A stretch of 64,000 nucleotides of DNA from contig DAOWCY010000006.1 in NCBI GenBank assembly GCA_030639305.1, positions 16,563-80,562 of the forward strand, given 5' to 3'. The translations under genes were made by a program, and so were the position numbers. The notes under the pieces are model-generated. The model was not told where the DNA came from and searched no databases. It saw only the letters and a program-made list of their open reading frames with translations. Positions 45,540 through 64,000 of the stretch are shown in pieces (positions within the stretch are counted from its first letter, which is position 1; each line of letters starts with the position of its first letter). The stretch comes from Candidatus Aminicenantes bacterium (GTDB lineage Bacteria; Acidobacteriota; Aminicenantia; UBA2199).

Positions 45540-45659
45540 GTTTAGTTATAAGCTCGGTGTGCTGAAGAATTTTTCAACATCTATAACATTATATCATAGT
45601 GCAGCCGTTGGTTGCAAATAAAAAAATCGTAACTATTCAGTTCTGTAAAAAATTAAAAC

Positions 45660-45745: not shown

Positions 45746-45869
45746 ATAAAAGCTTTGAATTTTTCTTTTTCCAAAACTGAACACTTACAAAAAATCGTAA
45801 CGATTCAATTTTGGAGAAATCGATATCTACGCAGTTCATATTCCGCTCACGTCCCTATCTCCAAAGTTT

Positions 45870-46080: not shown

Positions 46081-46089
46081 AAGTAAATT

Positions 46090-46765: not shown

Positions 46766-46810
46766 TCGATTTTCTCTTGAGGGCCGCCGTTATTCATGAT
46801 ATAATAATTT

Positions 46811-48517: not shown

Positions 48518-48665
48518 CCCCGTGCGCACGGGGAGGCGATAAGCGGCTTCGCCGCATGGGGCAGCGTGTGAGCGTTTTTGATTCTAACTCATAAAAAGTT
48601 TTGATCAAACTTTTTCAAAAGTTTGGCCCCCGGCAGGGCCGGCGGCGGCGGTGAATTCTGGATAA
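48515..48665. repeat. Full modular repeat element (orientation 2)
   Basis: CCCCGTGCGCACGGGGAGGCGATAAGCGGCTTCGCCGCATGGGGCAGCGTGTGAGCGTTTTTGATTCTAACTCATAAAAAGTTTTGATCAAACTTTTTCAAAAGTTTGGCCCCCGGCAGGGCCGGCGG. Confidence 0.85.
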
Positions 48666-48789
48666 AAAGCTGTCTTGATTTTTTTTGAGAAAAAGGTATA
48701 ATATAGGAATGGAATACTGCAACATGAATTGCCTGCAAGTCAGGAGAACAAGACCGGGGTTTTGCCGGGATTCCGGGAAATGCTGAACT

Positions 48790-49404
48790 ATGAATAAAAT
48801 CGGCTTAACAGGAGGAATTTGCGCGGGAAAAACTTTTGTACTCAACCTCCTTAAAGAACTGGGCTGTTACACCCTGAGAGCGGACGATATCGCTAAAAAT
48901 ATAATATTTTCCGGGAATTCTAAAATTTCGCAAGAGATTATAAAAGTTTTTGGCCCGGATATTTACGATGATAAGCAGGGCTTAAAAAAGGAAGAATTCA
49001 CGAAAATTTTATTCGAAGACGCGGAAAAACGAAATTTTATCAACAATATCGTTCATCCCCTGGTCACCGCTGAGAGAAATAAAATCTATGAAGATTTAAA
49101 CATCACCAAAGCCTTCCATTTTTTTATATATGAATCGGCGCTGTTGGTGGAAGCGGGGATTTATAAAGATTTCGACAAAATAATACTGGTCTATACCACC
49201 CATGAAGAGCAGTTGAAGCGGCTGATGGCCAGGGACGGTATAAAAAAAGAGGAAGCTGAAGCAAGGATAAAAGCCCAGTTTCCTATAAGTGAAAAGTTAA
49301 AGGTGGCGCACTATACGATAGATACCAGCGATACCTTTGAGAATGCAAAAGCGCAGACTTTAGAAACTTTTCACCTGATGAAAAAAGATTTTAAAGTGCC
49401 CTGA
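48790..49404 (+). CDS. coaE: Dephospho-CoA kinase
   Basis: MNKIGLTGGICAGKTFV P-loop at the N-terminus. About 200 aa. Confidence 0.8.
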   Translation: MNKIGLTGGICAGKTFVLNLLKELGCYTLRADDIAKNIIFSGNSKISQEIIKVFGPDIYDDKQGLKKEEFTKILFEDAEKRNFINNIVHPLVTAERNKIYEDLNITKAFHFFIYESALLVEAGIYKDFDKIILVYTTHEEQLKRLMARDGIKKEEAEARIKAQFPISEKLKVAHYTIDTSDTFENAKAQTLETFHLMKKDFKVP

Positions 49405-49536
49405 AATGAGCAGAAATTATATTAATCTATTGACATATTATAAGATTTTATTTAATATATTATTTTAAACATATGGGTTTTCTTAATAGCTCTTTCCAGC
49501 TTGACCGGATGGGAATGGCTGTAAAAGGAGGTAAAC

Positions 49537-52500
49537 ATGTTAGGCACAGTTATTTCGCACTACAAAATATTTGAGAAAATCGGCGAAGGTGGCATGGGAG
49601 TCGTTTACAAAGCCGAAGACACCAAGCTTAAACGCACAGTTGCCCTAAAATTCCTCCCCAAAGATTTGACCCGTAACCAGGAAGCCAGGGAACGGTTCCA
49701 GTTGGAAGCCCAGGCAGCCGCCTCATTAAACAACCCCAATATCGTCACCATCCACGAAATAGACGAATATGACGGCCGCGTATATATAGCCATGGAATAC
49801 GTTGAAGGCGACACCCTGAGAGACAGGATGCCCTACACCTGGGAACAGCGCGATACCCCCTTAGAAGATTTCGACGATTTTAAAACCAGGAAAATTTCCC
49901 CCGGCCCCGCAGCGGAACCCGAAGTTAAACCCATGGACATAAACGAGGTGCTCGACATCGCTATCCAGGTTTGCCGGGGGTTGAAAGCAACCCATAAGTT
50001 GGGAATTATCCACCGGGACATTAAACCCCAGAATATAATCCTCAATCCTGAAGGTGTAGTTAAAATATTGGATTTCGGTGTTGCCAAACTCACCCGGGGC
50101 ACCAATGTCACCAAAGAATTCGCCACTGTAGGCACTGTGCACTACATGTCACCCGATCAACTGACCGGCAAAGAGATAGATCAACGCACCGACATCTGGT
50201 CTTTGGGCGTGGTGCTTTATGAAATGCTGACCGCCAACTTACCTTTTAAACAGGACTCCATGCAGTCGATCATGTATTCTATCGTAAATGACAACCCGCT
50301 TCCCCCCTCGGAACTAAGCGACGACGTGCCCCGGCCTTTGGAAAGAATCATATTAAGGTGTTTACGAAAAGAGCAGGAAGATCGCTATCAATCGGTAGAG
50401 TTTCTCCTTAAAGACCTTAAAAAAATATTGGACGGCCTGCGCAAAGATTCCCAGGAATTGAAAATAAAGAAAAAAGCATCGCTCCGCAAAGAGAAGGAAC
50501 GCCGCACTGCCACGGTAATCTCCGCGGAAATCAGCGGGTACGGCGAAATGATGGAAACCTTAGACGCGGAAGAAGTGGCCACCACCATGAGTGATTATTC
50601 CGATATGTTCACTGCCGCCGCCGCAAAATATGAAGGCACTTTAGATAAAACATCAGGCAGTACGTTTACGGTTCTTTTCGGCGTCCCCCTGGCAGTGGAA
50701 AATGGGCCGGTAAAAGCAGTGCAGGCCGCGGTGGAGATGCGTCGTCAATTGGAGCAGTACCTGCGCAGGAGAAAACTCGAGGTTCCGCTAAACATTCGTA
50801 TCGGCGTCAACACAGGGGTGGTGATTGCCGGTGTGATGGGCAAGGACGAGGAAAAATATTCGGTGATCGGCGACGCCGTCAACCTGGCTAATCAATTGAA
50901 AGACGCAGCGCCGAAAGGAAAAATCTATATAGGCGCCCAAACCCAAAAAACTACCAAAAATAACTTCGAATATAAGGAACTCAAACCTATCACCCCAAAA
51001 GGTAAAAAACAGCCTATCACAGCCTATGAGTTTTTATCCGTAAAGTCGAAATCGGATCAGGCCCGCAAAGGCGCTGAACGAATGATCTTTGCCGGGATGG
51101 TGGGCCGGGATAGGGAATTAGACAAATTACAACTGCACCTGCTCAAGCTTGTCAACGGCGAAGGCTCTATTATCAACATTATCGGCGAAGCCGGTATCGG
51201 CAAGTCGCGCTTAATCGGCGAACTCCGTGCTAAAGATGCCTTTAAACGGGTGAAACTCCTGGAAGGCAGGGCATTGTCTATGGGCAAGAACCTCAGTTTT
51301 CACCCCCTGATCGCCATCATCAAAAATTGGGCGCAAATAACTGAGAAAGACACTGCCCAGGAAGCCTACAATAAGCTGGAGAAAACCGTCAAGGATGTCT
51401 ATCCCGAAGCTGTGGGTGAAATTTTCCCCTTTATCGCCACCCTGATGGGCATGAAACTAAGCGGCCAATACGCCGAACGGCTCGAAGGCATCGAAGGAGA
51501 CGCTTTAGAAAAACTGATGAAGAAGAATTTCCGCGAACTCATCATGAAAGCAGCCGAACAACAGCCGCTGGTTTTTTTGATCGAAGACCTGCACTGGGCG
51601 GACATAAGTTCTATCGAATTATTGGAATCCCTTTCCCGGCTGGTGAAAGAGAGTTCCATATTATTCATTAATATTTTCCGTCCCGGCTACGAAGAAACCG
51701 GGGAACGGCTGCTGCTCACCATTAAAGAGAGGTATCCCGGTCTTCATGCCGAAATTTACCTGAAATCTTTAGATGAAAGCGAAACCAAAAAACTCATCGT
51801 CGGTCTTCTAAAAGTGAAGGGCCTGCCGGCCAACATCCTGGGTCTTATCATCAAAAGAACCGGCGGAAATCCCTTTTTTATCGAAGAGATTATTCGTTCT
51901 TTTATCGACGACGGCATCGTGGAACTCAAAAACGGCCATTTTAAAGTGACCGACAAAATCGAAAATGTGGTAATCCCGGAAACCATAAACGATGTGTTGA
52001 TGGGACGCATAGATAAATTAGAGGATGATACGCGGTCGCTGCTGAAAGTTGCCGCCGTCATCGGCAGGAACTTTTTTTATAAAGTCTTAGCCCGGGTGGC
52101 CCTGAATATCGACGAAATAGACGAGCGCATCGAATTTTTAAAAGATACGGAACTCATCCGCGAACGCACCCGCATGGACGAACTGGAATACGTCTTTAAA
52201 AACACCCTGATCCAGGAAGCCGCCTATAGTTCTATCCTGATGAAAAAACGGAAAGAACTCCACGGCAAGGTAGCAACCGCTATAGAGGGAGCTTTTTCAG
52301 AAAAACTGCGTGAATTTTACGGTATGCTGGCGCTGCATTACAGTATGGCCGAAGACCTGGAAAAAGCGGAGAAATACCTCACCAAAGCCGGGGAAGAAGC
52401 ATTAAAAGCCGCTGCATCCAGCGAAGCGCTGCATTTTTACCGGGAAGCATTGAGTCTCTACCTCAAGCAGCATAAGGACGGCGGGGACCCCGACACCGTA

Positions 52501-53895
52501 GCTAACTTTGAAAAAAACATCGCCGCGGCTCTTTATAATAAAGGCGCTATGAAAGAATCCGTAGAGCACTGTAATAAAGCCCTGCGTTTATTGGGAGAGA
52601 AGTTACCCGCCAATAAGTTTGTCGAATCCGTCAAGCTTGCCCTCGATTTATTTAAACTGTTGAAAGGACTCTACTTTCCTCCCAAAAAACCCAAAATAAA
52701 CATGGTACCGCGAGTGAATGATATCATCGAATTGACCATTTTCCGGGGCACAGCCCAGGCAACTTTCGACAATTACCGGATGTTTATGAGTAACGTAGAG
52801 ACACTGGCCAGGCTGCACAAACTCGACCTATCCAAAATCCCCAAAGCACTGCCGTTGTATTTGCAAGCCAGTCTCTTATTTTCTTTTATGGGTTGGTTTA
52901 ATGTCGGTAAGAAGATACTCGACTACCACAAAGTCAAAAAATATGTAGGCACAGGGCACCCGCGGGCCATTTTCGACTATAGGTATGCGGACATAATGCA
53001 TGGTTTTTTATCCGGCGATTGGCGGGAAGAACTCGATCATGGCGATGAGGGCGTAGTCGATATTTGTTTAAAACAAGGCGACACCTTTTCCGCCCTGGTA
53101 TACTTGCTCTGGCGCGGAATCTTTATGGAGGAGAAAGGTAATTTCGAATCGGCGAAAAAGTGTTCCGATCAACTGCTGGAGATGAGCGAAGTGTACGAAA
53201 GCGATTATCCCACCGCCGTAGCCTATATTGTCTCTTCGCGGAGCAAGTTGAAACGCCGGCAGATATCCGACGCTTTAGCCGACACCGAATCCAGTTATTT
53301 TTATTCCGACAGCGTCGATCAGCACCTGATGTGTTTAAATTCTAAAGGGCTGAGAGCCAACGTGCAGATATTGTCAGGCGATATCGAAGGAGCTGAGAAA
53401 TCGTTAGAGGAAGCCGGTGAAATCGCCTCCCGCGAGAAGATGATTGTGGCCTGGCATATCAGCAGTTTTCGTTTAAGCAGTTTTTTGCTCGATCTGTATT
53501 ATTTAAAGAAAAATATAGAAATGGACGATAAACCCTATATCAAGAAATACAGTAAAGCCGCTGCCCGCACCGGCAATTTAGCTTTAAAAAATGTGGCCCA
53601 CTATGCTGCTAACCGCACGGAAGTATACCGCCAGATGGGGAATTATTCCTGGTTGTTGGGCAAGCAGGCCAAAGCCTTTTCCTGGTATACGAAGAGCGGC
53701 GCCGCGGGTGAGAAGATGGGCGCCCGTACCGAGCTTGCCCGCACTTACCGGGAGATCGGTAACCGGCTCCAGGAAGACGGTTGTAAGATCGGGCATTTGA
53801 ATAATCTCGACAGTGAACAATATTTAAAGAAAGCCCGTGCCATGTACGACGCCATCGGCCTTGTTTGGGAATTAGACAGTCACCCCGTGGTTTAG
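49537..53895 (+). CDS. Multidomain signalling protein: Ser/Thr protein kinase, class III adenylate/guanylate cyclase, AAA/STAND ATPase and TPR-like C-terminal region
   Basis: Kinase motifs GEGGMGVVYKA, HRDIKPQNIIL, DFGVAK. Cyclase homology domain (TATVISAEISGY...FTVLFGVP...IGVNTGVVIAGVMG...YSVIGDAVNLANQL). P-loop IIGEAGIGKSRLIGEL. Helical repeats downstream. Confidence 0.8.
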   Translation: MLGTVISHYKIFEKIGEGGMGVVYKAEDTKLKRTVALKFLPKDLTRNQEARERFQLEAQAAASLNNPNIVTIHEIDEYDGRVYIAMEYVEGDTLRDRMPYTWEQRDTPLEDFDDFKTRKISPGPAAEPEVKPMDINEVLDIAIQVCRGLKATHKLGIIHRDIKPQNIILNPEGVVKILDFGVAKLTRGTNVTKEFATVGTVHYMSPDQLTGKEIDQRTDIWSLGVVLYEMLTANLPFKQDSMQSIMYSIVNDNPLPPSELSDDVPRPLERIILRCLRKEQEDRYQSVEFLLKDLKKILDGLRKDSQELKIKKKASLRKEKERRTATVISAEISGYGEMMETLDAEEVATTMSDYSDMFTAAAAKYEGTLDKTSGSTFTVLFGVPLAVENGPVKAVQAAVEMRRQLEQYLRRRKLEVPLNIRIGVNTGVVIAGVMGKDEEKYSVIGDAVNLANQLKDAAPKGKIYIGAQTQKTTKNNFEYKELKPITPKGKKQPITAYEFLSVKSKSDQARKGAERMIFAGMVGRDRELDKLQLHLLKLVNGEGSIINIIGEAGIGKSRLIGELRAKDAFKRVKLLEGRALSMGKNLSFHPLIAIIKNWAQITEKDTAQEAYNKLEKTVKDVYPEAVGEIFPFIATLMGMKLSGQYAERLEGIEGDALEKLMKKNFRELIMKAAEQQPLVFLIEDLHWADISSIELLESLSRLVKESSILFINIFRPGYEETGERLLLTIKERYPGLHAEIYLKSLDESETKKLIVGLLKVKGLPANILGLIIKRTGGNPFFIEEIIRSFIDDGIVELKNGHFKVTDKIENVVIPETINDVLMGRIDKLEDDTRSLLKVAAVIGRNFFYKVLARVALNIDEIDERIEFLKDTELIRERTRMDELEYVFKNTLIQEAAYSSILMKKRKELHGKVATAIEGAFSEKLREFYGMLALHYSMAEDLEKAEKYLTKAGEEALKAAASSEALHFYREALSLYLKQHKDGGDPDTVANFEKNIAAALYNKGAMKESVEHCNKALRLLGEKLPANKFVESVKLALDLFKLLKGLYFPPKKPKINMVPRVNDIIELTIFRGTAQATFDNYRMFMSNVETLARLHKLDLSKIPKALPLYLQASLLFSFMGWFNVGKKILDYHKVKKYVGTGHPRAIFDYRYADIMHGFLSGDWREELDHGDEGVVDICLKQGDTFSALVYLLWRGIFMEEKGNFESAKKCSDQLLEMSEVYESDYPTAVAYIVSSRSKLKRRQISDALADTESSYFYSDSVDQHLMCLNSKGLRANVQILSGDIEGAEKSLEEAGEIASREKMIVAWHISSFRLSSFLLDLYYLKKNIEMDDKPYIKKYSKAAARTGNLALKNVAHYAANRTEVYRQMGNYSWLLGKQAKAFSWYTKSGAAGEKMGARTELARTYREIGNRLQEDGCKIGHLNNLDSEQYLKKARAMYDAIGLVWELDSHPVV

Positions 53896-53899
53896 ATAA

Positions 53900-54060
53900 G
53901 GTTGTTTTTTTTGGTCGATCCCCACTCGCGTGGGGAGGCTATGAGCGGCTTCGCCGCAAGAGGCAGCGTGTGAGCGCTTTTGATTTTAAATAATAAGAAG
54001 TTTTGATCAAACTTTTACAAAAGTTTGGCCCCCGGCAGGGCCGCCGGAGGCAAGGATGGG
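53900..54060. repeat. Full modular repeat element (orientation 2)
   Basis: CCCCACTCGCGTGGGGAGGCTATGAGCGGCTTCGCCGCAAGAGGCAGCGTGTGAGCGCTTTTGATTTTAAATAATAAGAAGTTTTGATCAAACTTTTACAAAAGTTTGGCCCCCGGCAGGGCCGCCGGAGGCAAGG. Confidence 0.85.
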
Positions 54061-54072
54061 GCTGAATGCTTA

Positions 54073-56001
54073 TTATACCCACAGCAGCAGTTCGGTTAGT
54101 TCTTTTTTTCCTAACTGCGCCTTCGGCCCCAAACGCACCTGCACTACCCCTTCTTTGTCTTCAGATACGATGCGGCGCAGTTCGGTGGTCACCACCCGCA
54201 TACGGTCATAAGTAGATAAATCAAAACTGCGCCGCCTATCGAAAGCACTCTTCCTATATCCCGGCGGCGGCGGCAGTTCTACCGCTTCGTTAATATTTCC
54301 GGCAAAATCTTCACGGCTGCTGATTTGCCCGCCTTCGAAGCAGAGCAGGATTCGCTTTTTTTCTTTGCCCACCGACTCCTGCCAAAAGAGTGTCGATTCG
54401 CTCAAAAGAGAAAACCAGCGCGAACGCCGCAGCAGGTGAGCGCCATGGCGGATAATGCCTTCCAGCATCGACGCTGCCGCTTCAGGCGTCCAAACTTTCT
54501 CTTCTTTTTCATCCTCCGCGGAGCTGCCGTTCTCATCTATTTCCGTGCTGTTTTTTCCCTCTTCTTCGAGCCCGGCTGCGGCCAGTTCTTTTAATTTGCG
54601 GCGGCTCAGTTCCTTGCCCAAAAGCAGCACCCTGTTAACAATATTCCCCGGAGGTATCATACTTGTCTGTCCCTGTTTAGCCTCATCAAATTGGCCTGTC
54701 CCCAAAAACTCATCATGCTCCCGGTAAAACAACTCGACCCCCTGCAAAAAAACCTCCAAACCGGGGGCATACTCTTCGGGAATCCCCAATAATTCAGCAC
54801 AAAAATTATTTTTTGCCTCCGGCGGCCTTGCCGGGGGCCAAACTTTTGAAAAAGTTTGAACAAAACTTTTATTTAATTTAGCCTGAAATTGGCCTGTCCC
54901 CTTTTCGAGCAACTCGATAATACCGGCCAGGGATTGCAGCGTTTGTACCGAAACTACCGGGCCAAGACGGTACACCTTATCCACTCCGGGAGCAGATTGT
55001 CGCAAATCCGAAGAAAAATAAAAAAGCCGCCGCTCCCCTTTCCGCAACGCTGCATTATAAGGCGGCGAGTGTTTTTTGATCTCATCAGATTCCAGCAAAG
55101 CAGCTTCTAAAGCCGATCCGGTCACCGTAATATCTAATTTATTGGCCTGGGTCAACATCTCTAAAGTGCGTTCAGAATGTTTGGCGCTCTTACGGAAATA
55201 ACTACCCACCCGCTGCTTCAAAGACGTTGCTTTGCCGATATAAAGCAGGTCGCCGTTGGAACGCAGCATCCGGTAAACACCGGGCAAGCCGGGCAAACCG
55301 CTTCGTTCCTTCGCCGCCATGGGGTAAACCCTTCCGGCGGAACCGGCCCCGGAAACAGCGGGTGGAGCTTCCAGCCATTCCCGCAGTTCCGGCAAGGTGC
55401 GGACGCCCCGCTGCTCTAAAAGTTTAACCGTTTCTTTCCAGGTGAAATTAGTGGCTTCGATGTGAGAGGCGCTGCGGCGCAGTTCAGGCACCGAATACCC
55501 CAAATAACCGGCTGCTGCCCGCAGACCTTTGCGAGGCAATTGAGGCAGCAGGCGTTTGATCACCCGGTGGGTACAAATAATCTCGAAAGGAAAAGGTTTT
55601 CCGGGCGACCATTTTTGATGCATTTCCCTGAGATAAGGTTCCTCGAAACGGGCAAAATGAATCACCGTAGGGCATAGTCCTCTTTTATTGGCTGCCGCTG
55701 TTCTTTTTACCGCCCGAAACAGTTTTTTCCAAGCTTTTTTGGGGGGCAGGCCGCGGGCCGCGTCCTCCGCAGAAATGCCGGTGATGCGTTTTACCGCGGT
55801 AGGGATGATTTCGTCATGCGGCAGTTTGATGAGATAAGAGGTGATTTTTTCGTTATTTTCCCGGCTTGAAGCCCGCACCCTGGCCCAGCCGATTTCCAGC
55901 AGACGCCCTTTTGCCGGGTTAGAACCGGTAGCCTGGCAGTCTACTATTAATACTTCCAGGCTGGATAACAGGTTTTCTTTTTTGAGATTCGATACTCGCA
56001 T
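54073..56001 (-). CDS. DnaQ-like 3'-5' exonuclease domain fused to a GIY-YIG (Cho/UvrC-like) nuclease domain. Carries an in-frame repeat-derived segment.
   Basis: N-terminal LEVLIVDCQATGSNPAKGRLLEIGW (DEDD exonuclease motif I). GIY-YIG GVYRMLRSNGDLLYIGKATSLKQRVGSYF. Residues ...LNKSFVQTFSKVWPPARPPEAKNNF... are the translation (revcomp) of repeat module 54815-54880. Confidence 0.65.
   Translation of the reverse strand: MRVSNLKKENLLSSLEVLIVDCQATGSNPAKGRLLEIGWARVRASSRENNEKITSYLIKLPHDEIIPTAVKRITGISAEDAARGLPPKKAWKKLFRAVKRTAAANKRGLCPTVIHFARFEEPYLREMHQKWSPGKPFPFEIICTHRVIKRLLPQLPRKGLRAAAGYLGYSVPELRRSASHIEATNFTWKETVKLLEQRGVRTLPELREWLEAPPAVSGAGSAGRVYPMAAKERSGLPGLPGVYRMLRSNGDLLYIGKATSLKQRVGSYFRKSAKHSERTLEMLTQANKLDITVTGSALEAALLESDEIKKHSPPYNAALRKGERRLFYFSSDLRQSAPGVDKVYRLGPVVSVQTLQSLAGIIELLEKGTGQFQAKLNKSFVQTFSKVWPPARPPEAKNNFCAELLGIPEEYAPGLEVFLQGVELFYREHDEFLGTGQFDEAKQGQTSMIPPGNIVNRVLLLGKELSRRKLKELAAAGLEEEGKNSTEIDENGSSAEDEKEEKVWTPEAAASMLEGIIRHGAHLLRRSRWFSLLSESTLFWQESVGKEKKRILLCFEGGQISSREDFAGNINEAVELPPPPGYRKSAFDRRRSFDLSTYDRMRVVTTELRRIVSEDKEGVVQVRLGPKAQLGKKELTELLLWV
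54815..54880. repeat. Repeat module (orientation 1) lying in-frame inside CDS 54073..56001
   Basis: GCCTCCGGCGGCCTTGCCGGGGGCCAAACTTTTGAAAAAGTTTGAACAAAACTTTT. Confidence 0.7.
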
Positions 56002-56018
56002 CTTTTGTTTTTATTAGT

Positions 56019-56342
56019 TTAGTCTACAATCTTCTCTAATTTATCAGGATTCTGCCGGACATCGAAAACAGTAGCTATAATGACTCTTCTACCTTTTACT
56101 CTATAAATAATTTTATAATTCCCTTCCACAAGATACCTGTATACATCAGGCTTATGTTCTAACAAAGGTTCCTGTTGCCCTATCTCAGTAAAACCTTCTT
56201 CAAGCAGTTCTACTTTATCTAAAATTTTATTAATAACGCGCAGTGCTGCATTTTTAGAAAATTGAGAGAGATATTCAAAAATGTTTCGTAAATCTTTTTT
56301 AGCCGGGTTTGTCCATTTAGTTTTTTTTATGCTTTTTTCCAC
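56019..56342 (-). CDS. Type II toxin-antitoxin system RelE/ParE family toxin
   Basis: 107 aa. ...YRYLVEGNYKIIYRVKGRRVIIATVFDVRQNP, the typical ParE C-terminus. Overlaps the upstream antitoxin ORF by 16 nt. Confidence 0.6.
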   Translation of the reverse strand: MEKSIKKTKWTNPAKKDLRNIFEYLSQFSKNAALRVINKILDKVELLEEGFTEIGQQEPLLEHKPDVYRYLVEGNYKIIYRVKGRRVIIATVFDVRQNPDKLEKIVD

Positions 56343-56620
56343 GTTCTAACTTCTTCTCTCAATTCCTCTTGTGTGATAAAATCACCCCTTTCTGCGGCAC
56401 GCTCAGATTCTTCTATCTTTTCATAAAAAGACTCGAGACTCATTGGTGGCAGTGACTCTTCCGGCTTTTTCTTACTTACGCTTTCTATTAAACCCTTAAT
56501 TCGCTGTAGTATAATTTCATCCTGTATTTTCAGCAGATGTTCGATTAACCAGAGTTTTTCGGCTCTTATATCCATTTTTTCACTCAATCCTATATTAGCA
56601 GATTTTTCTCTATTTTTCAA
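56327..56620 (-). CDS. Putative antitoxin partner of the ParE-like toxin
   Basis: 97 aa, directly upstream of and overlapping the toxin. Its C-terminal region (...MSLESFYEKIEESERAAERGDFITQEELREEV) has a degenerate paralogous copy at 60769-60880. Confidence 0.45.
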   Translation of the reverse strand: MKNREKSANIGLSEKMDIRAEKLWLIEHLLKIQDEIILQRIKGLIESVSKKKPEESLPPMSLESFYEKIEESERAAERGDFITQEELREEVRTWKKA

Positions 56621-56639
56621 ATAAAATTATAATTTTTGC

Positions 56640-56830
56640 CCCATGCCTTCGGCGACCCTGCCGGGGGGGGCGGCGCACCTATGGATTATTTTTTTCTTGC
56701 CTTCGGCGACCCTGCCGGGGGCCAAACTTTTGAAAAAGTTTGAACAAAACTTTTTATAATTTAAAAGCAAAAGCACCAGCCTGCCGCGAAGCGGCTTATT
56801 GCCTCCCCACGCGAGTGGGGCCACGCCGCG
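56640..56830. repeat. Modular repeat element, about 1.5 copies (orientation 1)
   Basis: GCCTTCGGCGACCCTGCCGGGGG appears twice, then CCAAACTTTTGAAAAAGTTTGAACAAAACTTTTTATAATTTAAAAGCAAAAGCACCAGCCTGCCGCGAAGCGGCTTATTGCCTCCCCACGCGAGTGGGG. Confidence 0.8.
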
Positions 56831-56833
56831 GGC

Positions 56834-57991
56834 CTACGGTTGGGGCGGCCTGGGGATAACAACCTTGAACTGCTCTCCCTCGATGTCATTGTAAAACTCG
56901 ATGTCGGGCTGCTCTTTCAGCGCTTTAATTATTCCCGAACCCAATCCCCGGTACGGCAGCATCTTACTGGCAAAAGATGCGATTAACGAATTCCTTATGG
57001 CTGAATTACCATACTTTATGTTTTCAACTGTTAGAGAATTGGGCAGCGCTCCGGGGCTTATTATTTCGATGCGATTATCGAAAATCAATAACCTTATGGA
57101 GGCAACCTTAAAGTAATCCCGGTGAATGAGTGCATTCTGTAATAACTCCTGGAGAGCAACTTTAGAAACTTCCAGGATGCCCAGGCTGTTGAAATCCTGC
57201 CCCTGCTGAGTTTTATGCAAATTTTTTAATAAAAAAGACATCACTTTTTCAAATTGACTGCCGATGTCACCTTCGATATCTTCACTGTCCCTGTATTCCG
57301 TATCAGCCAGGGAATTACCGAAAAAACTGACCGCTTTTATAATAAAAACACGTAAGAACCTCGCCGGTTCTTTGCCGAAAAGAAGCAGCCCGGCCAGGTT
57401 AAGATTGCCGTCCCTGGCTAAATGGAGATTTTCCAGTAATTTCTCCATGGGGATTTCCATCTCGTCAAGTGTTTTCTCATACACTTTCTTGAAATAATTG
57501 TTGAATTTTTCCCGGTCTAAATCGTTAATAGTTGCGCCTTCTACAGGCATATGATCCGCCAATAATTTCCTGCTTTGCTGGAACAAACGCTGCATCTCCT
57601 CCGGCGCGGTAACTTTGCGTTTATCCGAACCGTTTTTGACCCAGTAAATGCCGTCGTTATCGCAGTAAGGCTTATTGACGCCTTCCCGGACATACACAAC
57701 GATCAATTTTTCCCCTTCGATGGTAAAGTTTTCAGTGATTACATTGACGGCCGGCCTGATATTATTGGTAGTGGCATTGGCGATATATTGATTAATCCGG
57801 CCTATTTCCACGGCACTTAGACCTTTTATCCCCCCTCTATCTGTAACCCCGATAATAATTTTCCCGCCCCGGGAATTGGAAAAGGCTGCGATTTCCTCGC
57901 CCAACTTTTTTGCGCCGGTTATTGTCTCTTTAAACTGGTGCCTACTGTCTTCACCGTTGTCTATTATTTCAAGTAATTCTAATTCTTCCAT
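56834..57991 (-). CDS. AlbA_2 (Schlafen-like divergent AAA) plus HATPase_c_4 domain protein (often annotated as an ATP-dependent DNA-binding/transcriptional regulator)
   Basis: N-terminal ...EDSRHQFKETI...EIAAFSNSRGGKIIIGVTDRGGIKGL (AlbA_2 signature). C-terminal ...LQELLQNALIHRDY (HATPase_c_4-like). Its start overlaps the stop of the upstream PHP-ATPase gene by 13 nt. Confidence 0.65.
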   Translation of the reverse strand: MEELELLEIIDNGEDSRHQFKETITGAKKLGEEIAAFSNSRGGKIIIGVTDRGGIKGLSAVEIGRINQYIANATTNNIRPAVNVITENFTIEGEKLIVVYVREGVNKPYCDNDGIYWVKNGSDKRKVTAPEEMQRLFQQSRKLLADHMPVEGATINDLDREKFNNYFKKVYEKTLDEMEIPMEKLLENLHLARDGNLNLAGLLLFGKEPARFLRVFIIKAVSFFGNSLADTEYRDSEDIEGDIGSQFEKVMSFLLKNLHKTQQGQDFNSLGILEVSKVALQELLQNALIHRDYFKVASIRLLIFDNRIEIISPGALPNSLTVENIKYGNSAIRNSLIASFASKMLPYRGLGSGIIKALKEQPDIEFYNDIEGEQFKVVIPRPPQP

Positions 57992-60615
57992 AGTTCGTAT
58001 ATCCTTTTTCTTTTGTCAAATGCCTCTTCGCCGCCTTCCATTACGTTTACGATTTCATCTTGAATGGATTTCCTATCGATGCTGCCTGTTTTTAAGTGGA
58101 TGGAATTTTCCGAATAACTGCATTGTAGAACTTGCTCGCACTCACCCAGCACCGGGATGTTGGGGTTATGCGTGGCGAAAATAAATTGAGTTTGCTGTTT
58201 CAGCTTGGTCAATTCTTTGATAACGTCATTATAAAGAGACTGGTTGTCCAGGTCGTCTTCGGGCTGGTCGATTATAATAATCTCGTGGTCTTTCTTTGCC
58301 AGGATAAAAACAATAAATGCAGACGCCCGCTGACCTAAAGAATGCTTGCTTAATTCCTTTTGATTATAATATAGTTCTACTTTATCCGGTACCCGGAAAG
58401 TTAAAAAATGGTCGCGTATGTCTTCAATACGTTCCTTGAACCGGAGCAGCAAGCTGCCTTCCGTTCCGGTTAGTATTTTTTCCAAAGAGCTATCCTTTTT
58501 AAAAAGATCGTCGTAAATGTCAATGGGGTCCCGGTAAGATTCACAAATTTTTTTTATATGGTTCGCCGACAGGTAGGTGCCTTTAAAATTATTTTTAAAA
58601 AAGTTCTCGAAAGCCTCTTTGTCCTCTTTGAATTCGATTTTTATCTTAATCGATAAATCCTTCTCTTTCAATCGGTCGGTCTCTTCTTTTAATAACAGAA
58701 ATTCCTTGTGCCGGAGGTCTTTCAAGTCCTGAAGGGAATCCTGAAGCCATCTTTTTAATCGGCTGAGTTCTTGCGATTTTTTCTCCAACTGCGATAGAGT
58801 GGCCTTAACGATAGTCAGCCTGTTGTTGAAATTTATAAAATCGTCGGCATTCAATGTGGGCAAATCGATTTTTCGTCTGATTTGGGCAAATTCTTCCTGA
58901 AGTTCGGCATTTAACCGGTGAAATTCCTCTTTGATTTCTTTTAATTTCGTGAGATATTCTTTTCCCTGGTGGGCAAGGCTGTCGATCTCAATGAATTTTT
59001 TATGGAATGCACGCAAGCTTTTTTTTATCTTTTCAAACAGGCTTTCATTGCCGGGACTTTTGTATTCCAAGTAGTGATCGAAACTTCCTTTATGCTCATC
59101 TATAATCCCGGTTAGGTCGTCAACTATTGTTTGTAGAAAATCGATTATCTCTTCGAGTTTATCCCGATCCCGGTTAAAATCAACCTGCCGCTGCAGTTTC
59201 TCGTCAACTTTATGTTCCTTGAATTTTCTTAATTTTTCTTCAATATTACTTTTTTCTTCCAGCAATTCATCTCTCTTCTTTATTTTTTCTTTCAGGATAT
59301 TTATGCTGTTTAAGGTTCTTATAATATCTTGTTCTTTATCGAAAACCTGTTTCCTCACCTCTTTGACTTCATTTTTATCTCCGAAAAACTTTTCGATCAA
59401 ATCCCCGGCAAACCCTTTGCCGCCGATTTCCGACAGGTCCTTCTGGCCGAAATATAGAACATCGACAAGCCCACCGGCTATCTTCATGGTGGGCACCCTA
59501 TTCTCACCGCGAAATATTTGCGGTTTCTCTTTGTGAATTTTTTCAATCCTATATTTTTCTCCATGTCGATCGACGATATTAACTACTATTTTTCCACCGC
59601 TGCCGAGTAGGTTGTTTACTAAATCATCTTTATACTCTTTGTCTTTCGATTGTTTGTCAAATTTGTAGTCCAGGGCGCACCGTATCGCTTCCAGCAGAGT
59701 CGATTTACCGCTGCCCCTTATGCCGATCAAGTTGTTCATATCGGGATTCAAATGAACGGTCTGCCCGTCTAACATCCCGCCGACAAATGAAATATCTTTT
59801 ATGTAACCGTTTTTACGCTTCGGAAAAGATTTCTTAATTCTCGTGGAATTGGCCAGCAGGGCATATTTGACGGCTTCGAAATTAAAATCTCCAATTTTTA
59901 TATAGGTGACTGAATCTCTTTGCCCGATATCATCGAGCGTTTTGGGATCGGAGCCATCCAAAAAGGCAGGTAATTTGTCGCTTCCATAGATTTCGATAAT
60001 CTCTTCCTTTGATTTGTCACTCTCCAGCTTTTGGAAGCCGATTACATGGTCCTTAAACAGGGGTTCACTGTAGATACCTCTCTCCCTGATCCCCCTGGCG
60101 GTTTCCTTGAAGAACCCTTTATCCCGGTCCACATGAGCCAAAATGATAAAATAACCGGCACGGAATTCATTTAACCTTTTAATAGTTTGCATCAATTTCT
60201 CTTCTGTGTTTCCGTCAGGTTTAATCGGTTTTGTTCCGAATGTTCCATTAAGAAATTTTTCGATATTGTTGATGTTTTTCTTATCGTCTACCCACGCTTC
60301 ATAATCGAAAACAACTAAAGTATGAATCCCGTTTTTTCCGTCCCCCACGTTCAATTCTACACCGGGTAATAGGAAAACGTCTCTTTTCCAGGCTTTTTTT
60401 CTCAATTCTTTAAATTCATCGTGGTAAAAACGATTGTGATTGGTGATTACCCCGACATTGATTTTTTGTTCTTCCAGCTTATCTAAAAAACGATTAAAAA
60501 AATCATTGGGATTATCCTCAAATTTTATGCCCAAAGGATCTGAAACTGTATGTAGGTGAAAATCAGCCCTCAGCCATTTGCTGCCGGTCTCGAAAAATTT
60601 AATTGTATTTTTCAT
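57979..60615 (-). CDS. PHP-family phosphoesterase domain fused to a RecF/SMC-like ABC ATPase with a long coiled-coil insert
   Basis: N-terminal RADFHLHTVSD and ...ILAHVDRDKG (PHP metal-binding His motifs). Walker [15 protein letters not shown]. About 350 aa of coiled coil. C-terminal Walker B/D-loop IIIIDQPEDDLD and ATHNPNIP. Confidence 0.7.
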   Translation of the reverse strand: MKNTIKFFETGSKWLRADFHLHTVSDPLGIKFEDNPNDFFNRFLDKLEEQKINVGVITNHNRFYHDEFKELRKKAWKRDVFLLPGVELNVGDGKNGIHTLVVFDYEAWVDDKKNINNIEKFLNGTFGTKPIKPDGNTEEKLMQTIKRLNEFRAGYFIILAHVDRDKGFFKETARGIRERGIYSEPLFKDHVIGFQKLESDKSKEEIIEIYGSDKLPAFLDGSDPKTLDDIGQRDSVTYIKIGDFNFEAVKYALLANSTRIKKSFPKRKNGYIKDISFVGGMLDGQTVHLNPDMNNLIGIRGSGKSTLLEAIRCALDYKFDKQSKDKEYKDDLVNNLLGSGGKIVVNIVDRHGEKYRIEKIHKEKPQIFRGENRVPTMKIAGGLVDVLYFGQKDLSEIGGKGFAGDLIEKFFGDKNEVKEVRKQVFDKEQDIIRTLNSINILKEKIKKRDELLEEKSNIEEKLRKFKEHKVDEKLQRQVDFNRDRDKLEEIIDFLQTIVDDLTGIIDEHKGSFDHYLEYKSPGNESLFEKIKKSLRAFHKKFIEIDSLAHQGKEYLTKLKEIKEEFHRLNAELQEEFAQIRRKIDLPTLNADDFINFNNRLTIVKATLSQLEKKSQELSRLKRWLQDSLQDLKDLRHKEFLLLKEETDRLKEKDLSIKIKIEFKEDKEAFENFFKNNFKGTYLSANHIKKICESYRDPIDIYDDLFKKDSSLEKILTGTEGSLLLRFKERIEDIRDHFLTFRVPDKVELYYNQKELSKHSLGQRASAFIVFILAKKDHEIIIIDQPEDDLDNQSLYNDVIKELTKLKQQTQFIFATHNPNIPVLGECEQVLQCSYSENSIHLKTGSIDRKSIQDEIVNVMEGGEEAFDKRKRIYELWKN

Positions 60616-60744
60616 ATTATTAATATATATACCGAAATGACCTTAAAATCAATACTTTTTATTAATATTATCCGATTTTTTCTAAATCATTGAACGATCC
60701 GCCGTTATTCAGCGGGATTTTGTTTAATTTAAATCCTCTGCTTC

Positions 60745-60880
60745 TATTAATTCTCTTGTTTTCCACGTCTAAACTTTTTCTCGCAATTCCGCTTGTGTAA
60801 TAAAATCACCTCTTTCCAGGGCACACTCGGATTCTTCTATCCTTTCATAAAAGGATTCAAAGTTCATTGGCGGCATAGTA
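60745..60880 (-). pseudogene. Degenerate remnant of an antitoxin gene 3' end plus the first nucleotides of a parE-like gene. About 80% identical over roughly 115 bp to 56325-56445.
   Basis: Direct alignment of TTCCACGTCTAAACTTTTTCTCGCAATTCCGCTTGTGTAATAAAATCACCTCTTTCC...GATTCTTCTATCCTTTCATAAAAGGATTCAAAGTTCATTGG with 56334-56450. The translated remnant ...FESFYERIEESECALERGDFITQAELREKV parallels the 56327..56620 protein. Confidence 0.5.
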
Positions 60881-60908
60881 TATAAAGGTGCGGAATCAGG
60901 CTTCATTT

Positions 60909-61841
60909 TCATTTTATATTGTGAGTCAAAAACGTGGGCCAGGACTTCACATGCCATGGGAGTATCTTTATATTAGACACTTCATAGGCGTAGTAATTTA
61001 TGGGGGCGGTTGAAGCTTTTGATCTCACTAAAACCGCAAATCGAAACTCTTTGGAGGGGAATTCTTTTCTGAAGAAATTAAGGGCCATTTGGGGTCTTTC
61101 ACCGATGGGAGTTGCCCCCTCTACAAGGAGGATTTTTTTCTGATCCTGCTCAATTGTGATGGTTTTATCATATATATGTTCGCGGTTTTTTACTCCATTG
61201 TGCTCTACATCTAAAAAATTCCAATTAAATCCCCTAAATGGTTTTGCCCCCAAATACCCGGCAATTAGCCCACCTATAATGCCCCCGCTTCTACCGATCC
61301 CGATCACTAAATCAGGATTATATGTCTCTTCTTCCATTTGGGAGACAATTCTGCCTATCCCTTTCTCTACATCCGGCCAGGTGAATTCGGATCTGTCTTC
61401 ATCCATGTCGGTGCAATAAACTTCGGTATTTTGGAGCCATTCTTTTATATCTTTCTCAGAATTTTCCCTGTTGTTTTTACTAATATCTATGGTTAAAATA
61501 CCGGTGAGATCTGTTGATATCTTCGGCTTCCCATCCACACATATGATCGCCTTTTTAATTCCTAATCGACCGGCAAATAATCCATACTCAATAAGGACAT
61601 TATCGCGGGGTTGCTTCGTGCTTTCGCTGCGGTTCTCTATAAGATCATCCTCCGAAAAAATAAAAACAGCCGCATCTATATTTTTACTAATCTCAATTAG
61701 TCGGGGAAAAGTGTATTCTCCCGGTGAAAAGAGAGATTTTTTGTCCCACCTGAGAGGTTTGTGACCAGCGGCCTTGATGCTTTTTTCGACCCAGCTTAAC
61801 GCTTCTGAAGATTCGGTTGAACTGCCGATAAATACTATCAT
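60909..61841 (-). CDS. Fusion protein: N-terminal TIR-like nucleotide-binding domain (PF10137 / CAP12-type) and C-terminal type-I phosphoribosyltransferase (PRTase)-like domain
   Basis: N-terminus MIVFIGSSTESSEALSWVEKSIKAAGHKPLRWDK...AVFIFSEDDL...DNVLIEYGLFAGRLG matches the TIR-like 'predicted nucleotide-binding protein' pattern (IFIGSS...FVF.pDD...NVifElGlf.G.LG). C-terminus has DLVIGIGRSGGIIGG and KILLVEGATPIGE, resembling the PRTase PRPP-binding loop. Confidence 0.5.
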   Translation of the reverse strand: MIVFIGSSTESSEALSWVEKSIKAAGHKPLRWDKKSLFSPGEYTFPRLIEISKNIDAAVFIFSEDDLIENRSESTKQPRDNVLIEYGLFAGRLGIKKAIICVDGKPKISTDLTGILTIDISKNNRENSEKDIKEWLQNTEVYCTDMDEDRSEFTWPDVEKGIGRIVSQMEEETYNPDLVIGIGRSGGIIGGLIAGYLGAKPFRGFNWNFLDVEHNGVKNREHIYDKTITIEQDQKKILLVEGATPIGERPQMALNFFRKEFPSKEFRFAVLVRSKASTAPINYYAYEVSNIKILPWHVKSWPTFLTHNIK

Positions 61842-61853
61842 GTTACCTCCTTT

Positions 61854-62195
61854 TCAAAGATGCACGGTCAACTTCCCGGACGCATACTGATGCACCAATG
61901 AACCGATAATTGTTTGATAAGGAATACCGACTTCCGATGCTCTCATTCGCAGCCTTTCCAGGTCTTGCTCCGTTAACCTGATACTGATACGCTTTGTCTT
62001 CGGCGCAGTATTCCAGACCGCCTCTATTAATTCTCTTTTTTTCTTTTCTCCGTCATCTACAGGTATAAGCTCACCCCTTTCATAAGCTTCCAATATTTCT
62101 TTTTCTTCATCGGGATCATCTATCAGTCCTATTTTCCCGCTTTCTAAAGCGTCTATAATAGCTTTTTTATCCTTAAATTTTTTTTTATTTTCCAT
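61854..62195 (-). CDS. brnA: BrnA-type antitoxin (ribbon-helix-helix-containing)
   Basis: 113 aa. ...KTKRISIRLTEQDLERLRMRASEVGIPYQTIIGSLVHQYASGKL matches the BrnA C-terminal signature. Immediately downstream of and overlapping the BrnT-like gene. Confidence 0.55.
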   Translation of the reverse strand: MENKKKFKDKKAIIDALESGKIGLIDDPDEEKEILEAYERGELIPVDDGEKKKRELIEAVWNTAPKTKRISIRLTEQDLERLRMRASEVGIPYQTIIGSLVHQYASGKLTVHL

Positions 62196-62475
62196 TTTTG
62201 TCCTCCTTTTTTAGATATTTCTTTGTGGCCTTCCTGCTCCTAAAAATTGTTTTCAAAAAATATTTTTCTTCGGCTTCTATAAAAGGAACAAGATAAGCAC
62301 TACCTTTGATTTCCACTACCATTATCTCCTGGTGTGGGTACTTTTTTTCATTCGAGTGTTTATACCTATCTAATAATTTTCCTTCTTTCAATGCAGTGAT
62401 GATTTCTTCAGAAGAAATTTCTCTCTTTTTTTTTAGCAGCTCATTTTTTTCTGCATTCCACTTGTATCGTTTCAT
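62185..62475 (-). CDS. brnT: BrnT-type ribonuclease toxin (DUF497)
   Basis: 96 aa. MKRYKWNAEKNELLKKKREISSEEI...MVVEIKGSAYLVPFIEAEEKYFLKTIFRSRKATKKY resembles the DUF497/BrnT pattern (f.WD..Kn..N..KHG.sFeE......RiISARkAt..E...Y). Confidence 0.6.
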   Translation of the reverse strand: MKRYKWNAEKNELLKKKREISSEEIITALKEGKLLDRYKHSNEKKYPHQEIMVVEIKGSAYLVPFIEAEEKYFLKTIFRSRKATKKYLKKEDKNGK

Positions 62476-62519
62476 GCTAATATTATATCCAAAACAGGCA
62501 CAATGTCAATACTTTCGCA

Positions 62520-62670
62520 CCAAGTTTTGCTTGCCTCCGGGGTGCGACGCACCCAGCCTTTTTGCCTCCCCGTGCGTACGGGGGCCGCGGGCTTGCAAAA
62601 ATGATACACTTCCTTTATAATCGAAATTTAAAAAGCGGACGGCGTCCGCACCCTATTGGACGGCAAAACC
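62520..62670. repeat. Partial repeat elements (hairpin modules GGTGCGACGCACC, CCCCGTGCGTACGGGGG, AGCGGACGGCGTCCGC)
   Basis: TTGCCTCCGGGGTGCGACGCACCCAGCC...GCCTCCCCGTGCGTACGGGGGCCGCGGGC...AAAAAGCGGACGGCGTCCGCACCCTATTGG. Confidence 0.6.
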
Positions 62671-62741
62671 TGAGCCATGTATAGACGGTTTGTTTTGGCA
62701 TACTTTTAGGGATAAAAATCAACAGGAAAAGGAGACTTGAA

Positions 62742-63569
62742 ATGCGTGATTTTGCAGGAAAAAATGCTTTAATTACAGGCGGAGCCAGCGGCATCGGTTT
62801 GGCCGCGGCAAAAGAATTGATTCGCAGCGGTGCGAATGTAACGATTTTCGACTTGAACGGCGAGGCGTTGGGCAGCGCTGTAAAAGAACTGGAAGCTTTT
62901 GCCGGTGAAGTGAATGCGGACGTGCGCTGTGAAGGCGAAACCGGTGATGTTACCGATTTCGAAGCCCTTAAAAAAGTTGTAGACAGCATGGAGGAAAAAG
63001 GTAACCCGGTGGACCTTTTATTAACTTGCGCCGGGATAGCACATCCCACTGCGCTGGCGGAATTAGATCTCGACATCATCAAAAAAACGGTAGATATAGA
63101 TTTATTGGGCACTATTTATTCCTGTCGCGCCGTATTGCCCGGTATGATAAAAAGGGACGGCAGAGGTCACATTGCCTTAGTCAGTTCTTTGGCCGGGATT
63201 CTCGGTGTTTATGGGTATTCCGCTTATGGAGCCGCCAAGTTCGGCGTCCGCGGGTTAGGCGAGGTGCTGCTCCAGGAATTGAAACCCTACGATATTAACG
63301 TCACTATTTTGTTTCCCCCGGATACGGACACCCCGCAGTTTGAATATGAGAACCGGTTCAAACCCGAAGCCACGAAAGCCATCGCCGGGACGATTAAGCC
63401 GGTTTCCGCCGAATATGTGGCCCGCTGTTTAGTAAAGGGGATCCGGAAGAACCGTTTCCAGGTGATACCTACTTTTACCGGCAAAGTTACGAATATGGCG
63501 TCTAAACTTTTTGCGCCTATCTTGCGTTGGGCCCTAGTCGGTGTGGTAAAGAAAGCAGTTAGAAAATAG
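62742..63569 (+). CDS. SDR-family NAD(P)-dependent oxidoreductase
   Basis: ALITGGASGIGLAAAKEL (TGxxxGxG). Catalytic SSLAG...YSAYGAAK (YxxxK). Confidence 0.85.
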   Translation: MRDFAGKNALITGGASGIGLAAAKELIRSGANVTIFDLNGEALGSAVKELEAFAGEVNADVRCEGETGDVTDFEALKKVVDSMEEKGNPVDLLLTCAGIAHPTALAELDLDIIKKTVDIDLLGTIYSCRAVLPGMIKRDGRGHIALVSSLAGILGVYGYSAYGAAKFGVRGLGEVLLQELKPYDINVTILFPPDTDTPQFEYENRFKPEATKAIAGTIKPVSAEYVARCLVKGIRKNRFQVIPTFTGKVTNMASKLFAPILRWALVGVVKKAVRK

Positions 63570-63660
63570 GCCCGCGGTCCGAGCACCCTAATTAAAAGTT
63601 TTGATCAACCCCACTGCGTGGGGAGGCGTTTAGCTGTTTCGCAGCAGGGAGGTGTTTTTG
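63570..63660. repeat. Short repeat element (AAAAGTTTTGATCAA, CCCCACTGCGTGGGG hairpin, GCTGTTTCGCAGCAGGG)
   Basis: CCTAATTAAAAGTTTTGATCAACCCCACTGCGTGGGGAGGCGTTTAGCTGTTTCGCAGCAGGGAGG. Confidence 0.65.
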
Positions 63661-63860
63661 GTTTCTCATACGTACACCACGTTTTCCAGTATATTTTTCT
63701 TTATCGTACTCTTCAGGGCGTTGGGGGTTACCAGGTCTACCGCCGTTCCTAATTGGTCTGTCAAAAAAGATTTTAACCTGGAGAATTCAAATAGATTCAC
63801 CGGGCGCATCCTTGTTTTGGCACCAATGTTGCACTCTATAATACAGGTAAGAAAAACTAT

Positions 63861-64000
63861 TCTTCCTTTTTCATATATTTTTCTTTATATTCATCCACTG
63901 CCTCTGTGATTTCCGGCGGCGCGTTACGCACCCTGGAAAGATACAGGTAAGCCCTAAAACGCACCCGGTGCTCCTTATCGTTTATAAAGGGGATCAGCAG
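63861..64000 (-). CDS. Partial CDS (C-terminal 46 codons plus stop; the gene runs off the window end), possibly HEAT-like repeat protein
   Basis: Minus-strand frame reads ...LLIPFINDKEHRVRFRAYLYLSRVRNAPPEITEAVDEYKEKYMKKEE* with stop at 63861-63863. Not in the ORF track because it is truncated. Confidence 0.2.

Follow-up and report, generated by a model that had tools for sequence, protein, structure and literature searches.

Based on profile, structure and homologue searches we found that a gene of Candidatus Aminicenantes bacterium encodes a TIR domain of the Cap12/Pycsar effector class fused to a domain with the fold of a type I phosphoribosyltransferase (PRTase). The gene lies on the minus strand at 60909..61841 of a 64,000-nucleotide stretch (the window) of contig DAOWCY010000006.1 in GenBank assembly GCA_030639305.1, and all coordinates below refer to this stretch. 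Its open reading frame (ORF) is intact, running in the ORF list from an ATG start to a TGA stop over 310 amino acids (aa), and the identical protein (P0001) occurs in NCBI, ENA and Logan, with the NCBI name 'MAG: nucleotide-binding protein [Candidatus Aminicenantes bacterium]'. Because Pfam, PADLOC, NCBIfam and PDB sequence matches were obtained for the halves of the protein, the fusion is, at the level of sequence, real and far beyond chance. No description of a TIR-PRTase architecture was found in the literature searched, including papers that pair TIR and PRTase terms or cite PF10137, in keeping with a preliminary description of this DNA that had not recognised the architecture in any described defence system. 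It is the PRTase-fold partner that is undescribed in this literature, whereas a TIR effector with a nucleotide-fold regulatory domain is an already known kind. As the best explanation, put forward tentatively and at a little less than even probability, we propose that the protein is a self-contained abortive-infection or stress-triggered NADase, which would hydrolyse nicotinamide adenine dinucleotide (NAD+) under the control of a ligand-binding PRTase-like domain.

The TIR and PRTase-like halves

The N-terminal half (aa 3-121, with a helix continuing to about aa 137; 61479..61835, minus strand) was assigned to the CAP12/Pycsar-type TIR class, as the preliminary description had also done, and Pfam, PADLOC, NCBIfam and PDB agreed on this assignment. 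The Pfam family CAP12-PCTIR_TIR (PF10137) covered aa 3-121 with 117 of its 119 profile positions (E=1.7e-26, 93 bits against a gathering score of 24.7). PADLOC models of CBASS/Pycsar TIR effectors matched aa 3-137 with E-values of 1e-29 to 3e-20, and the PycTIR model with 7e-17; the PADLOC scan of the protein gave no matches beyond the TIR-effector and PycTIR models. The PADLOC PDC-S35 models aligned with the TIR core only (aa 49-129, against the C-terminal third of the models) and gave no full-length match. The NCBIfam Cap12 equivalogs likewise covered the TIR only, at 67-76 bits against a cutoff of 450, and sequence matches in the PDB were to Cap12 TIR-STING (9lmq, 4e-14; 7un8, 1e-11) and PycTIR (8jsj, 2.5e-8). 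A LOG/SLOG or other non-TIR Rossmann assignment was ruled out, every library leading to a Cap12/PycTIR-type TIR. All the motifs that had been quoted from the protein beforehand (IVFIGSS, AVFIFSEDD, NVLIEYGLFAGRLG and VEGATPIGE) were present.

In the NADase pocket of the TIR-STING protein SfSTING, the nicotinamide is stacked by F6, W33, F37 and L47, coordination of the phosphodiester linkage and of the adenosine ribose falls to S10, R78 and N80, and E84 acts as catalytic residue (Morehouse et al. 2022, PMC9402430). D110 comes in trans from the dimer mate, so that the pocket is active only on TIR-TIR packing and filament formation turns the protein on (PMC9402430). In a HMMER alignment to 7un8, where the chain index equals the native number plus 8, these nine residues correspond in the same order to F4, W32, F38, L48, S8, R79, N81, E85 and D111 of the window protein, and the Glu85 codon was read from the sequence as GAG at 61587..61589 (minus strand). 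All nine were invariant in 12 close relatives (alignment A1), including the catalytic glutamate whose conservation had been named as a check on the TIR assignment. Because these pocket and catalytic positions of TIR-STING are conserved, the TIR half passes every sequence test for an oligomerisation-activated NADase of the Cap12 class. They were also kept in four fusions at 30-36% identity (alignment A6), except for a change of S8 to Ala in P0094 and P0095 and of E85 to Lys in P0093. The latter protein (345 aa; contig ERZ1426827) carries the lysine within NILFKMGLF and has intact PRTase-like loops, and its TIR may be a catalytically dead variant.

The C-terminal half (aa 155-302; 60936..61379, minus strand) falls in the class of XGPRT-type and archaeal purine PRTases. 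Pfam Pribosyltran matched it with E=1.1e-7 (31.7 bits against a gathering score of 26.3), and PDB sequence matches were to the archaeal purine PRTases 1vdm, 4trb and 4z1o. We modelled the C-terminal 165 aa with an alignment of 42 sequences, giving a predicted local distance difference test score (pLDDT) of 90 and a predicted template modelling score of 0.86. Foldseek searches with this domain model found the purine PRTase of P. horikoshii (1vdm; E=1e-11, TM-score 0.74-0.83) as well as Sulfolobus HGXPRT/APRT, H. pylori XGHPRT and E. coli XGPRT, and the structural neighbours include proteins that bind ppGpp or act as sensors of 5-phosphoribosyl 1-pyrophosphate (PRPP) or nucleotides. The modelled domain thus has a true type I PRTase fold, and the PRTase-like character given to this half in the preliminary description was borne out by Pfam, the domain model and Foldseek alike.

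The active-site loops gave a mixed picture. The pyrophosphate (PPi) loop G183-R184-S185-G186-G187, located at 61281..61295 (minus strand) from alignments of relatives, is present, and G183, R184 and G186 were conserved at 90% or more across 150 representatives of the subfamily described below. At the C terminus, L-P-W296-H occupies the position of the 'FPW' motif of XGPRT-type enzymes and keeps the base-stacking tryptophan. The GRSGG loop, G242-A243-T244, G247, P250 and LPWH were invariant down to 30% identity. The PRPP loop, in contrast to the PPi loop, is degenerate (I237-LLVEGATPIGER-P250; 61092..61133, minus strand; alignments A1, A5 and A6). The canonical DD/ED pair that follows the hydrophobic strand (LLV) is replaced by E241-G242, where the glycine was invariant in the TIR-PRTase relatives and present in 114 of the 150 representatives, and where position 241 varied among close relatives between E, K (P0008) and L (P0012). 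The Asp of the canonical DTG turn is absent, and the turn binding the 5'-phosphate reads PIGER in the window protein and TTGxT in most relatives, with an invariant G247. Of the PRPP-loop residues that the preliminary description had proposed to look for, the acidic pair was not found, its second residue being an invariant glycine and its first variable. Judged from these alignments, what the PRTase half has lost is a hallmark acidic residue; the PPi loop, the stacking tryptophan and most of the 5'-phosphate loop have been kept.

Both halves are under purifying selection. Between loci L001 and L004, the only pair without saturation at synonymous sites, the ratio of nonsynonymous to synonymous substitution (dN/dS) was 0.12 in the TIR part of the gene and 0.22 in the PRTase part.

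Rarity of the fusion and exchange of partner domains

Searches of 5.8 billion clusters and 1.84 billion representatives recovered the fusion in about 17 protein clusters (P0001-P0012, P0087, P0093-P0095 and the TIR_2 variant P0219), all of them from metagenomes or metagenome-assembled genomes. A homologue search with a profile of the distant fusions gave no further members.

When a profile of the PRTase-like domain was searched against the 1.84 billion representatives, it matched 1264 proteins at E<=1e-3 and 266 at E<=1e-10. The module belongs to a small distinct clade, apart from the bulk of PRTases. Its signature is the glycine in place of the second catalytic acid of the PRPP motif, and two motif types were seen among the best 150 representatives, to which all composition figures in this text refer: VLLV-A-G-E-x-H-T-G-N-T, and VLVV-E-G-A-T/S-T/S-x-G-x-T, which takes in every Cap12-TIR fusion. 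The majority of the 150 are proteins of 180-215 aa with a single N-terminal hydrophobic, presumed transmembrane (TM), helix. A C-terminal His_Phos_1 domain occurs in 18, a Cap12-type TIR in five, TIR_2 together with His_Phos_1 in one (P0219), EAD11 in one (P0123) and a helix-turn-helix (HTH) domain in a few, such as P0233. The wider subfamily was studied through representatives P0087-P0234 and loci L005-L010 and L012-L017. A profile search of genome contigs added seven distant relatives, six TM-anchored and one with an unassigned N-terminal domain, and no TIR fusion was among them.

The two halves of the window protein were each found with other partners. Its PRTase-like module is 53-54% identical to those of the TM-anchored proteins P0014-16, it also stands behind a single TM helix in P0027, and it is 71% identical to the module of P0013, where it follows an unrelated non-TIR domain; the JGI label 'cupin' for this N terminus was unsupported by Pfam at E<=0.01. 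The TIR, in turn, is 50-57% identical to TIRs joined to GGACT/AIG2, Macro, methyltransferase, ATP-grasp, prok_STING and several unassigned C-terminal domains. An apparent cyclase-PRTase fusion at the acidobacterial locus L011, seen by eye, was not borne out by Pfam. Alternation of TIR and TM segments on a constant ligand-receptor domain is the pattern of TIR-STING and TM-STING and of PycTIR and PycTM, and by analogy the swapping of partners around the PRTase-like module resembles the effector swapping at STING and cyclic nucleotide monophosphate (cNMP) sensor domains.

Possible functions of the protein

In the explanation that we favour, the PRTase-like domain would serve as a regulatory ligand-binding and oligomerisation module, in the place that STING holds in Cap12, and not as a salvage enzyme. 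It would bind a small molecule of the phosphoribosyl type, such as PRPP, a purine nucleoside monophosphate (NMP) or a (p)ppGpp-like alarmone, the level of which would change on infection; these candidates are proposed because of the retained sites and of the structural neighbours that bind ppGpp or sense PRPP or nucleotides. Binding of the ligand, or its loss, would drive TIR-TIR packing, Asp111 would complete the active site in trans, and the packed TIRs would hydrolyse NAD+ and stop the growth of the cell before phage mature. A dedicated signal synthase would not be needed. The proposal is supported by the complete TIR pocket, the selectively altered PRTase site, the modular swapping, the lack of a conserved partner and the island context. 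The preliminary description had considered nucleotide processing or synthesis alongside binding, and we infer that the comparative data agree better with the binding of a nucleotide-type ligand than with its synthesis.

Among known systems, the protein is close to Cap12 (TIR-STING, SfSTING; 7un8, 9lmq), with which it shares the N-terminal TIR class, the NAD+-pocket residues including the trans Asp, and the overall plan of about 310 aa with an N-terminal TIR and a C-terminal domain of nucleotide-binding fold. It differs in that the C-terminal half is a PRTase fold instead of the STING cyclic-dinucleotide receptor, and the ORFs scanned between 42.5 and 63.6 kb, like the loci of relatives, yielded no CD-NTase. 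Pycsar offers the same TIR class (PycTIR, 8jsj) and a ligand-binding module placed behind either a TIR or a TM segment (PycTM), but the domain order is reversed, the cNMP-binding domain of PycTIR being N-terminal. Pfam found no cNMP-binding domain in the window protein, no PycC cyclase adjoins the gene, and the relatives' loci are without a cyclase gene. The sole Guanylate_cyc domain in the window lies in a 1452-aa kinase/STAND protein 7 kb off. The window protein resembles the purine PRTases of XGPRT and archaeal type (1vdm, 4z1o, 4trb, 7kl6) and the ppGpp-bound PRTase-like protein 5vog in its fold, in its PPi loop, in where the 5'-phosphate loop lies and in a C-terminal 'PW' with the base-stacking tryptophan, whereas it has E-G for the DD/ED pair, lacks the DTG Asp and belongs to a separate small subfamily. 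Regulators of the PurR/PyrR type use the PRTase fold as a sensor of PRPP or nucleotides; here the similarity is at the level of the fold only, and the output would be a TIR NADase instead of DNA or RNA binding.

Several observations weigh against this explanation. The full-length AlphaFold2 model (pLDDT 65.6) was too poor for interdomain geometry, and the model of the C-terminal domain alone was used. The PIGER turn of the window protein departs from the TTGxT of its relatives, and ligand binding in this copy may be altered. UPRT-type enzymes work with one acidic residue, and because of this precedent and of the phosphate-binding elements that have all been kept, the PRTase-like domain could still catalyse a reaction. 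Purine PRTases are constitutive oligomers, so that the domain could also be a mere scaffold. The His_Phos_1 and EAD11 fusions are no less in keeping with an enzyme or effector than with a sensor, the TM-only relatives are without an obvious defence neighbourhood, and several TIR-PRTase relatives stand among DNA-repair-type or housekeeping genes.

A broader form of the receptor idea, which we consider rather doubtful, is that the Gly-variant PRTase fold constitutes a new family of small-molecule receptors that would report PRPP, purine NMPs or alarmones of the (p)ppGpp/(p)ppApp type to interchangeable outputs. These outputs would comprise the TIR NADase, the single-TM module, the HTH domain, EAD11 and the histidine phosphatase.

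The strongest of the alternatives, although in our judgement an unlikely one, is a two-headed toxin, in which the TIR would hydrolyse NAD+ while the PRTase-like half would consume PRPP or attach a phosphoribosyl group to a base or to a product of the TIR such as nicotinamide. This would hit the cell twice and block the PRPP-dependent re-synthesis of NAD+ by the phage. EAD11 is an adaptor named for its association with effectors, and the fusions to it and to His_Phos_1 are the best arguments for this alternative, to which can be added the joining of close TIR relatives to the enzyme-like GGACT, Macro, methyltransferase and ATP-grasp domains and the conservation of the PPi loop, the stacking tryptophan and most of the 5'-phosphate loop. 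PADLOC also has a model for a PRTase effector of retron type III-A, and a PRTase domain is a proven toxic effector in ShosT, the toxin of the DprA-PRTase system ShosTA (PMC11961720). The preliminary description had drawn on ShosT for plausibility, and the two are alike in being defence-associated, or putatively so, with a PRTase domain. However, ShosT begins with a pyrophosphatase-like domain, carries the canonical DD pair and is partnered by a DprA-like antitoxin, ShosA, and its D331A/D332A double mutant loses toxicity, showing that the pair is essential (PMC11961720). None of these features is present in the window case: no DprA-like neighbour of the gene was found, and the essential pair is replaced by E-G, with an invariant Gly and a Glu replaceable by K or L. 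Because the acidic pair that ShosT toxicity depends on is replaced, the analogy with ShosT is a weak one. The DTG-turn Asp is also absent, and the turn varies among close relatives (TTTGKT, TTAGQT, TTNGER, TPIGER), which is unusual for a catalytic loop. The window protein was not matched by the ShosT or retron-PRTase models of PADLOC at E<=0.1, P0027 giving a weak match to the retron type III-A model at 7.6e-4, and no reverse transcriptase was found among the window neighbours.

It is very improbable that the protein generates a signal, with the TIR making a cyclic ADP-ribose-type or other NAD-derived molecule as in ThsB of Thoeris, the PRTase-like half helping to build or modify it, and the effector being encoded elsewhere. 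TIR domains can be signal synthases (bioRxiv 10.64898/2025.12.03.692087), and a PRTase could in principle add a phosphoribosyl group. Nevertheless, the characterised members of PF10137, Cap12 and PycTIR, are NAD+-depleting effectors, no conserved effector or sensor gene adjoined the loci examined, and the catalytic motif of the PRTase is degenerate.

A housekeeping role, in which a TIR-like N-glycosidase and a salvage PRTase would be fused for the recycling of bases or nucleotides, is scarcely probable. In its favour, the JGI automatic annotation of relatives is 'hypoxanthine phosphoribosyltransferase', several Aminicenantes-like contigs have the gene in one and the same position, with a DinG-like helicase on one side and an Exo/GIY-YIG gene on the other, and the distant relative P0093 sits among genes of aromatic amino-acid biosynthesis. 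Against this, the fusion is extremely rare and entirely metagenomic, the gene is AT-rich compared with the flanks and lies in a variable island, the TIR pocket equals an NADase pocket residue for residue, and the canonical acidic pair of PRTases is missing. Furthermore, the TIR-PRTase protein is more conserved between genomes (71%) than a flanking orthologue (47%), which suggests that the gene is mobile.

Least probable of all is that the window copy is decaying or regulatory-dead, with a diverged turn (P245, I246, R249) and no response to the family ligand, since, although the protein is an outlier among the 12 relatives at three loop positions, its ORF is intact with a strong Shine-Dalgarno sequence and a promoter, dN is low and dS saturated against the relatives, and R249 also occurs in P0012, so that position 249 tolerates variation.

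Genomic surroundings and wider meaning

In this genome the TIR-PRTase gene follows a BrnT-like/BrnA-like pair. The BrnT-like toxin gene (62185..62475, minus strand) matched Pfam DUF4258 and BrnT_toxin, the latter with E=2.6e-5 and 24.9 bits, under its gathering score of 34.5, and the BrnA/CopG-type antitoxin-like gene (61854..62195, minus strand) matched CopG_antitoxin with 32.2 bits against a gathering score of 28 and, weakly, Pfam BrnA_antitoxin and NCBIfam BrnA. The toxin stands first and the two genes overlap by 11 nt, an order that fits BrnTA. The preliminary description had put the gene 13 nt behind the pair; the spacer that separates the BrnA-like stop from the start of TIR-PRTase measures 12 nt (AAAGGAGGTAAC; 61842..61853, minus strand) and contains the Shine-Dalgarno sequence AAGGAGG. 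A promoter scan gave a perfect sigma-70 consensus, TTGACA-16-TATAAT, upstream of BrnT (62482..62509, minus strand; 12/12, a consensus match only), and no terminator-like site was found on the minus strand from this promoter to the end of the TIR-PRTase gene. Because of the promoter and the lack of an intervening terminator, the three genes are probably one operon, with TIR-PRTase as the third cistron. BrnTA is missing at all related loci and was rejected as a family-wide functional partner, with local co-transcription still likely; the operon is an arrangement of this locus and does not make the pair a component of a system. Directly downstream, a 47-aa ORF (MKMKPDSAPLYTMPPMNFESFYERIEESECALERGDFITQAELREKV; 60769..60912, minus strand, from the ORF list) has an ATG that overlaps the TIR-PRTase stop (ATGA). 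It was rejected as a conserved antitoxin or partner, since it matched nothing in Pfam, PADLOC, NCBIfam or PHROG and L001-L020 lack a counterpart.

The operon belongs to an AT-rich island (56019..62475) with gene GC contents of 0.32-0.44, against 0.52 in the Exo/GIY-YIG gene on one side and 0.50 in the SDR gene on the other. The island, which comprises two toxin-antitoxin-like (TA-like) pairs, a Schlafen/AlbA_2 protein, a TrlF/Ppl-like ATPase and TIR-PRTase, looks like an acquired, variable TA/defence hotspot. The second TA-like pair (56019..56620, minus strand) consists of a ParE-family toxin (Pfam E=6.6e-14) and an overlapping upstream 97-aa ORF without a family match, presumably its antitoxin. 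The TrlF-family protein (57979..60615, minus strand; 878 aa, PHP and ABC/SMC-like ATPase) reached 493 bits in NCBIfam against a cutoff of 350 and matched anti-phage Ppl models over aa 10-659 (PADLOC 1e-35). The 3' end of its gene overlaps the start of the Schlafen/AlbA_2-HATPase_c_4 gene (56834..57991) by 13 nt, which suggests that the two form a two-gene unit. Together with the ParE pair, they lie between TIR-PRTase and the Exo/GIY-YIG orthologue (54073..56001), which is about 5 kb away and 47% identical to that of L001. Elsewhere in the window we noted two giant Ser/Thr-kinase proteins, one of 1452 aa on the plus strand (49537..53895; Pkinase, Guanylate_cyc, STAND-like AAA_16 and TPR) and one of 1026 aa on the minus strand (42459..45539; Pkinase and TPR). 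No tRNA or tmRNA genes and no Rfam families at gathering score were found in the 64-kb window (1..64000).

At L001, L002, L004 and the contig of P0009, a DinG-like helicase gene lies upstream and an Exo(RNase_T)/GIY-YIG gene downstream of TIR-PRTase. These genes were rejected as partners, DinG being absent from the window and both from the distant relatives, and we take their presence to mark a shared chromosomal position and not a system. On the P0009 contig (Logan ERR13166147) a gene with a PycTM domain (PF18967) follows two genes downstream, past Exo/GIY-YIG. Genes for HNH and AAA_15/21 proteins adjoin TIR-PRTase at L003, and a resolvase gene adjoins P0095. No partner gene recurred across the TIR-PRTase loci examined, and no neighbour gene recurred among the TM-only relatives examined. 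Two F_bP_aldolase fragments, of 91 and 209 aa, enclose a TM-PRTase-like gene (P0246) and a gene of the DeoC family at L012 (4701..7636) and L013, as though these two had been inserted into an aldolase gene.

TIR effectors fused to STING, SAVED, cNMP-binding or SLOG sensors have a central place in the immunity of bacteria and in the origin of innate immunity in eukaryotes. The TIR-PRTase protein is small and self-contained, and as it comes without a signal-synthase gene, some TIR effectors may respond directly to ordinary nucleotide metabolites. It also exposes a wider uncharacterised PRTase-like subfamily with its 1264 representatives. If the two-headed toxin were true, the protein would be a toxin built to defeat the re-synthesis of NAD+ by phage, which would likewise be new. 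If the proposed receptor family were true, a TIR immune effector would here, for the first time, be gated by a core metabolite, instead of by a cyclase-made messenger or a phage protein.

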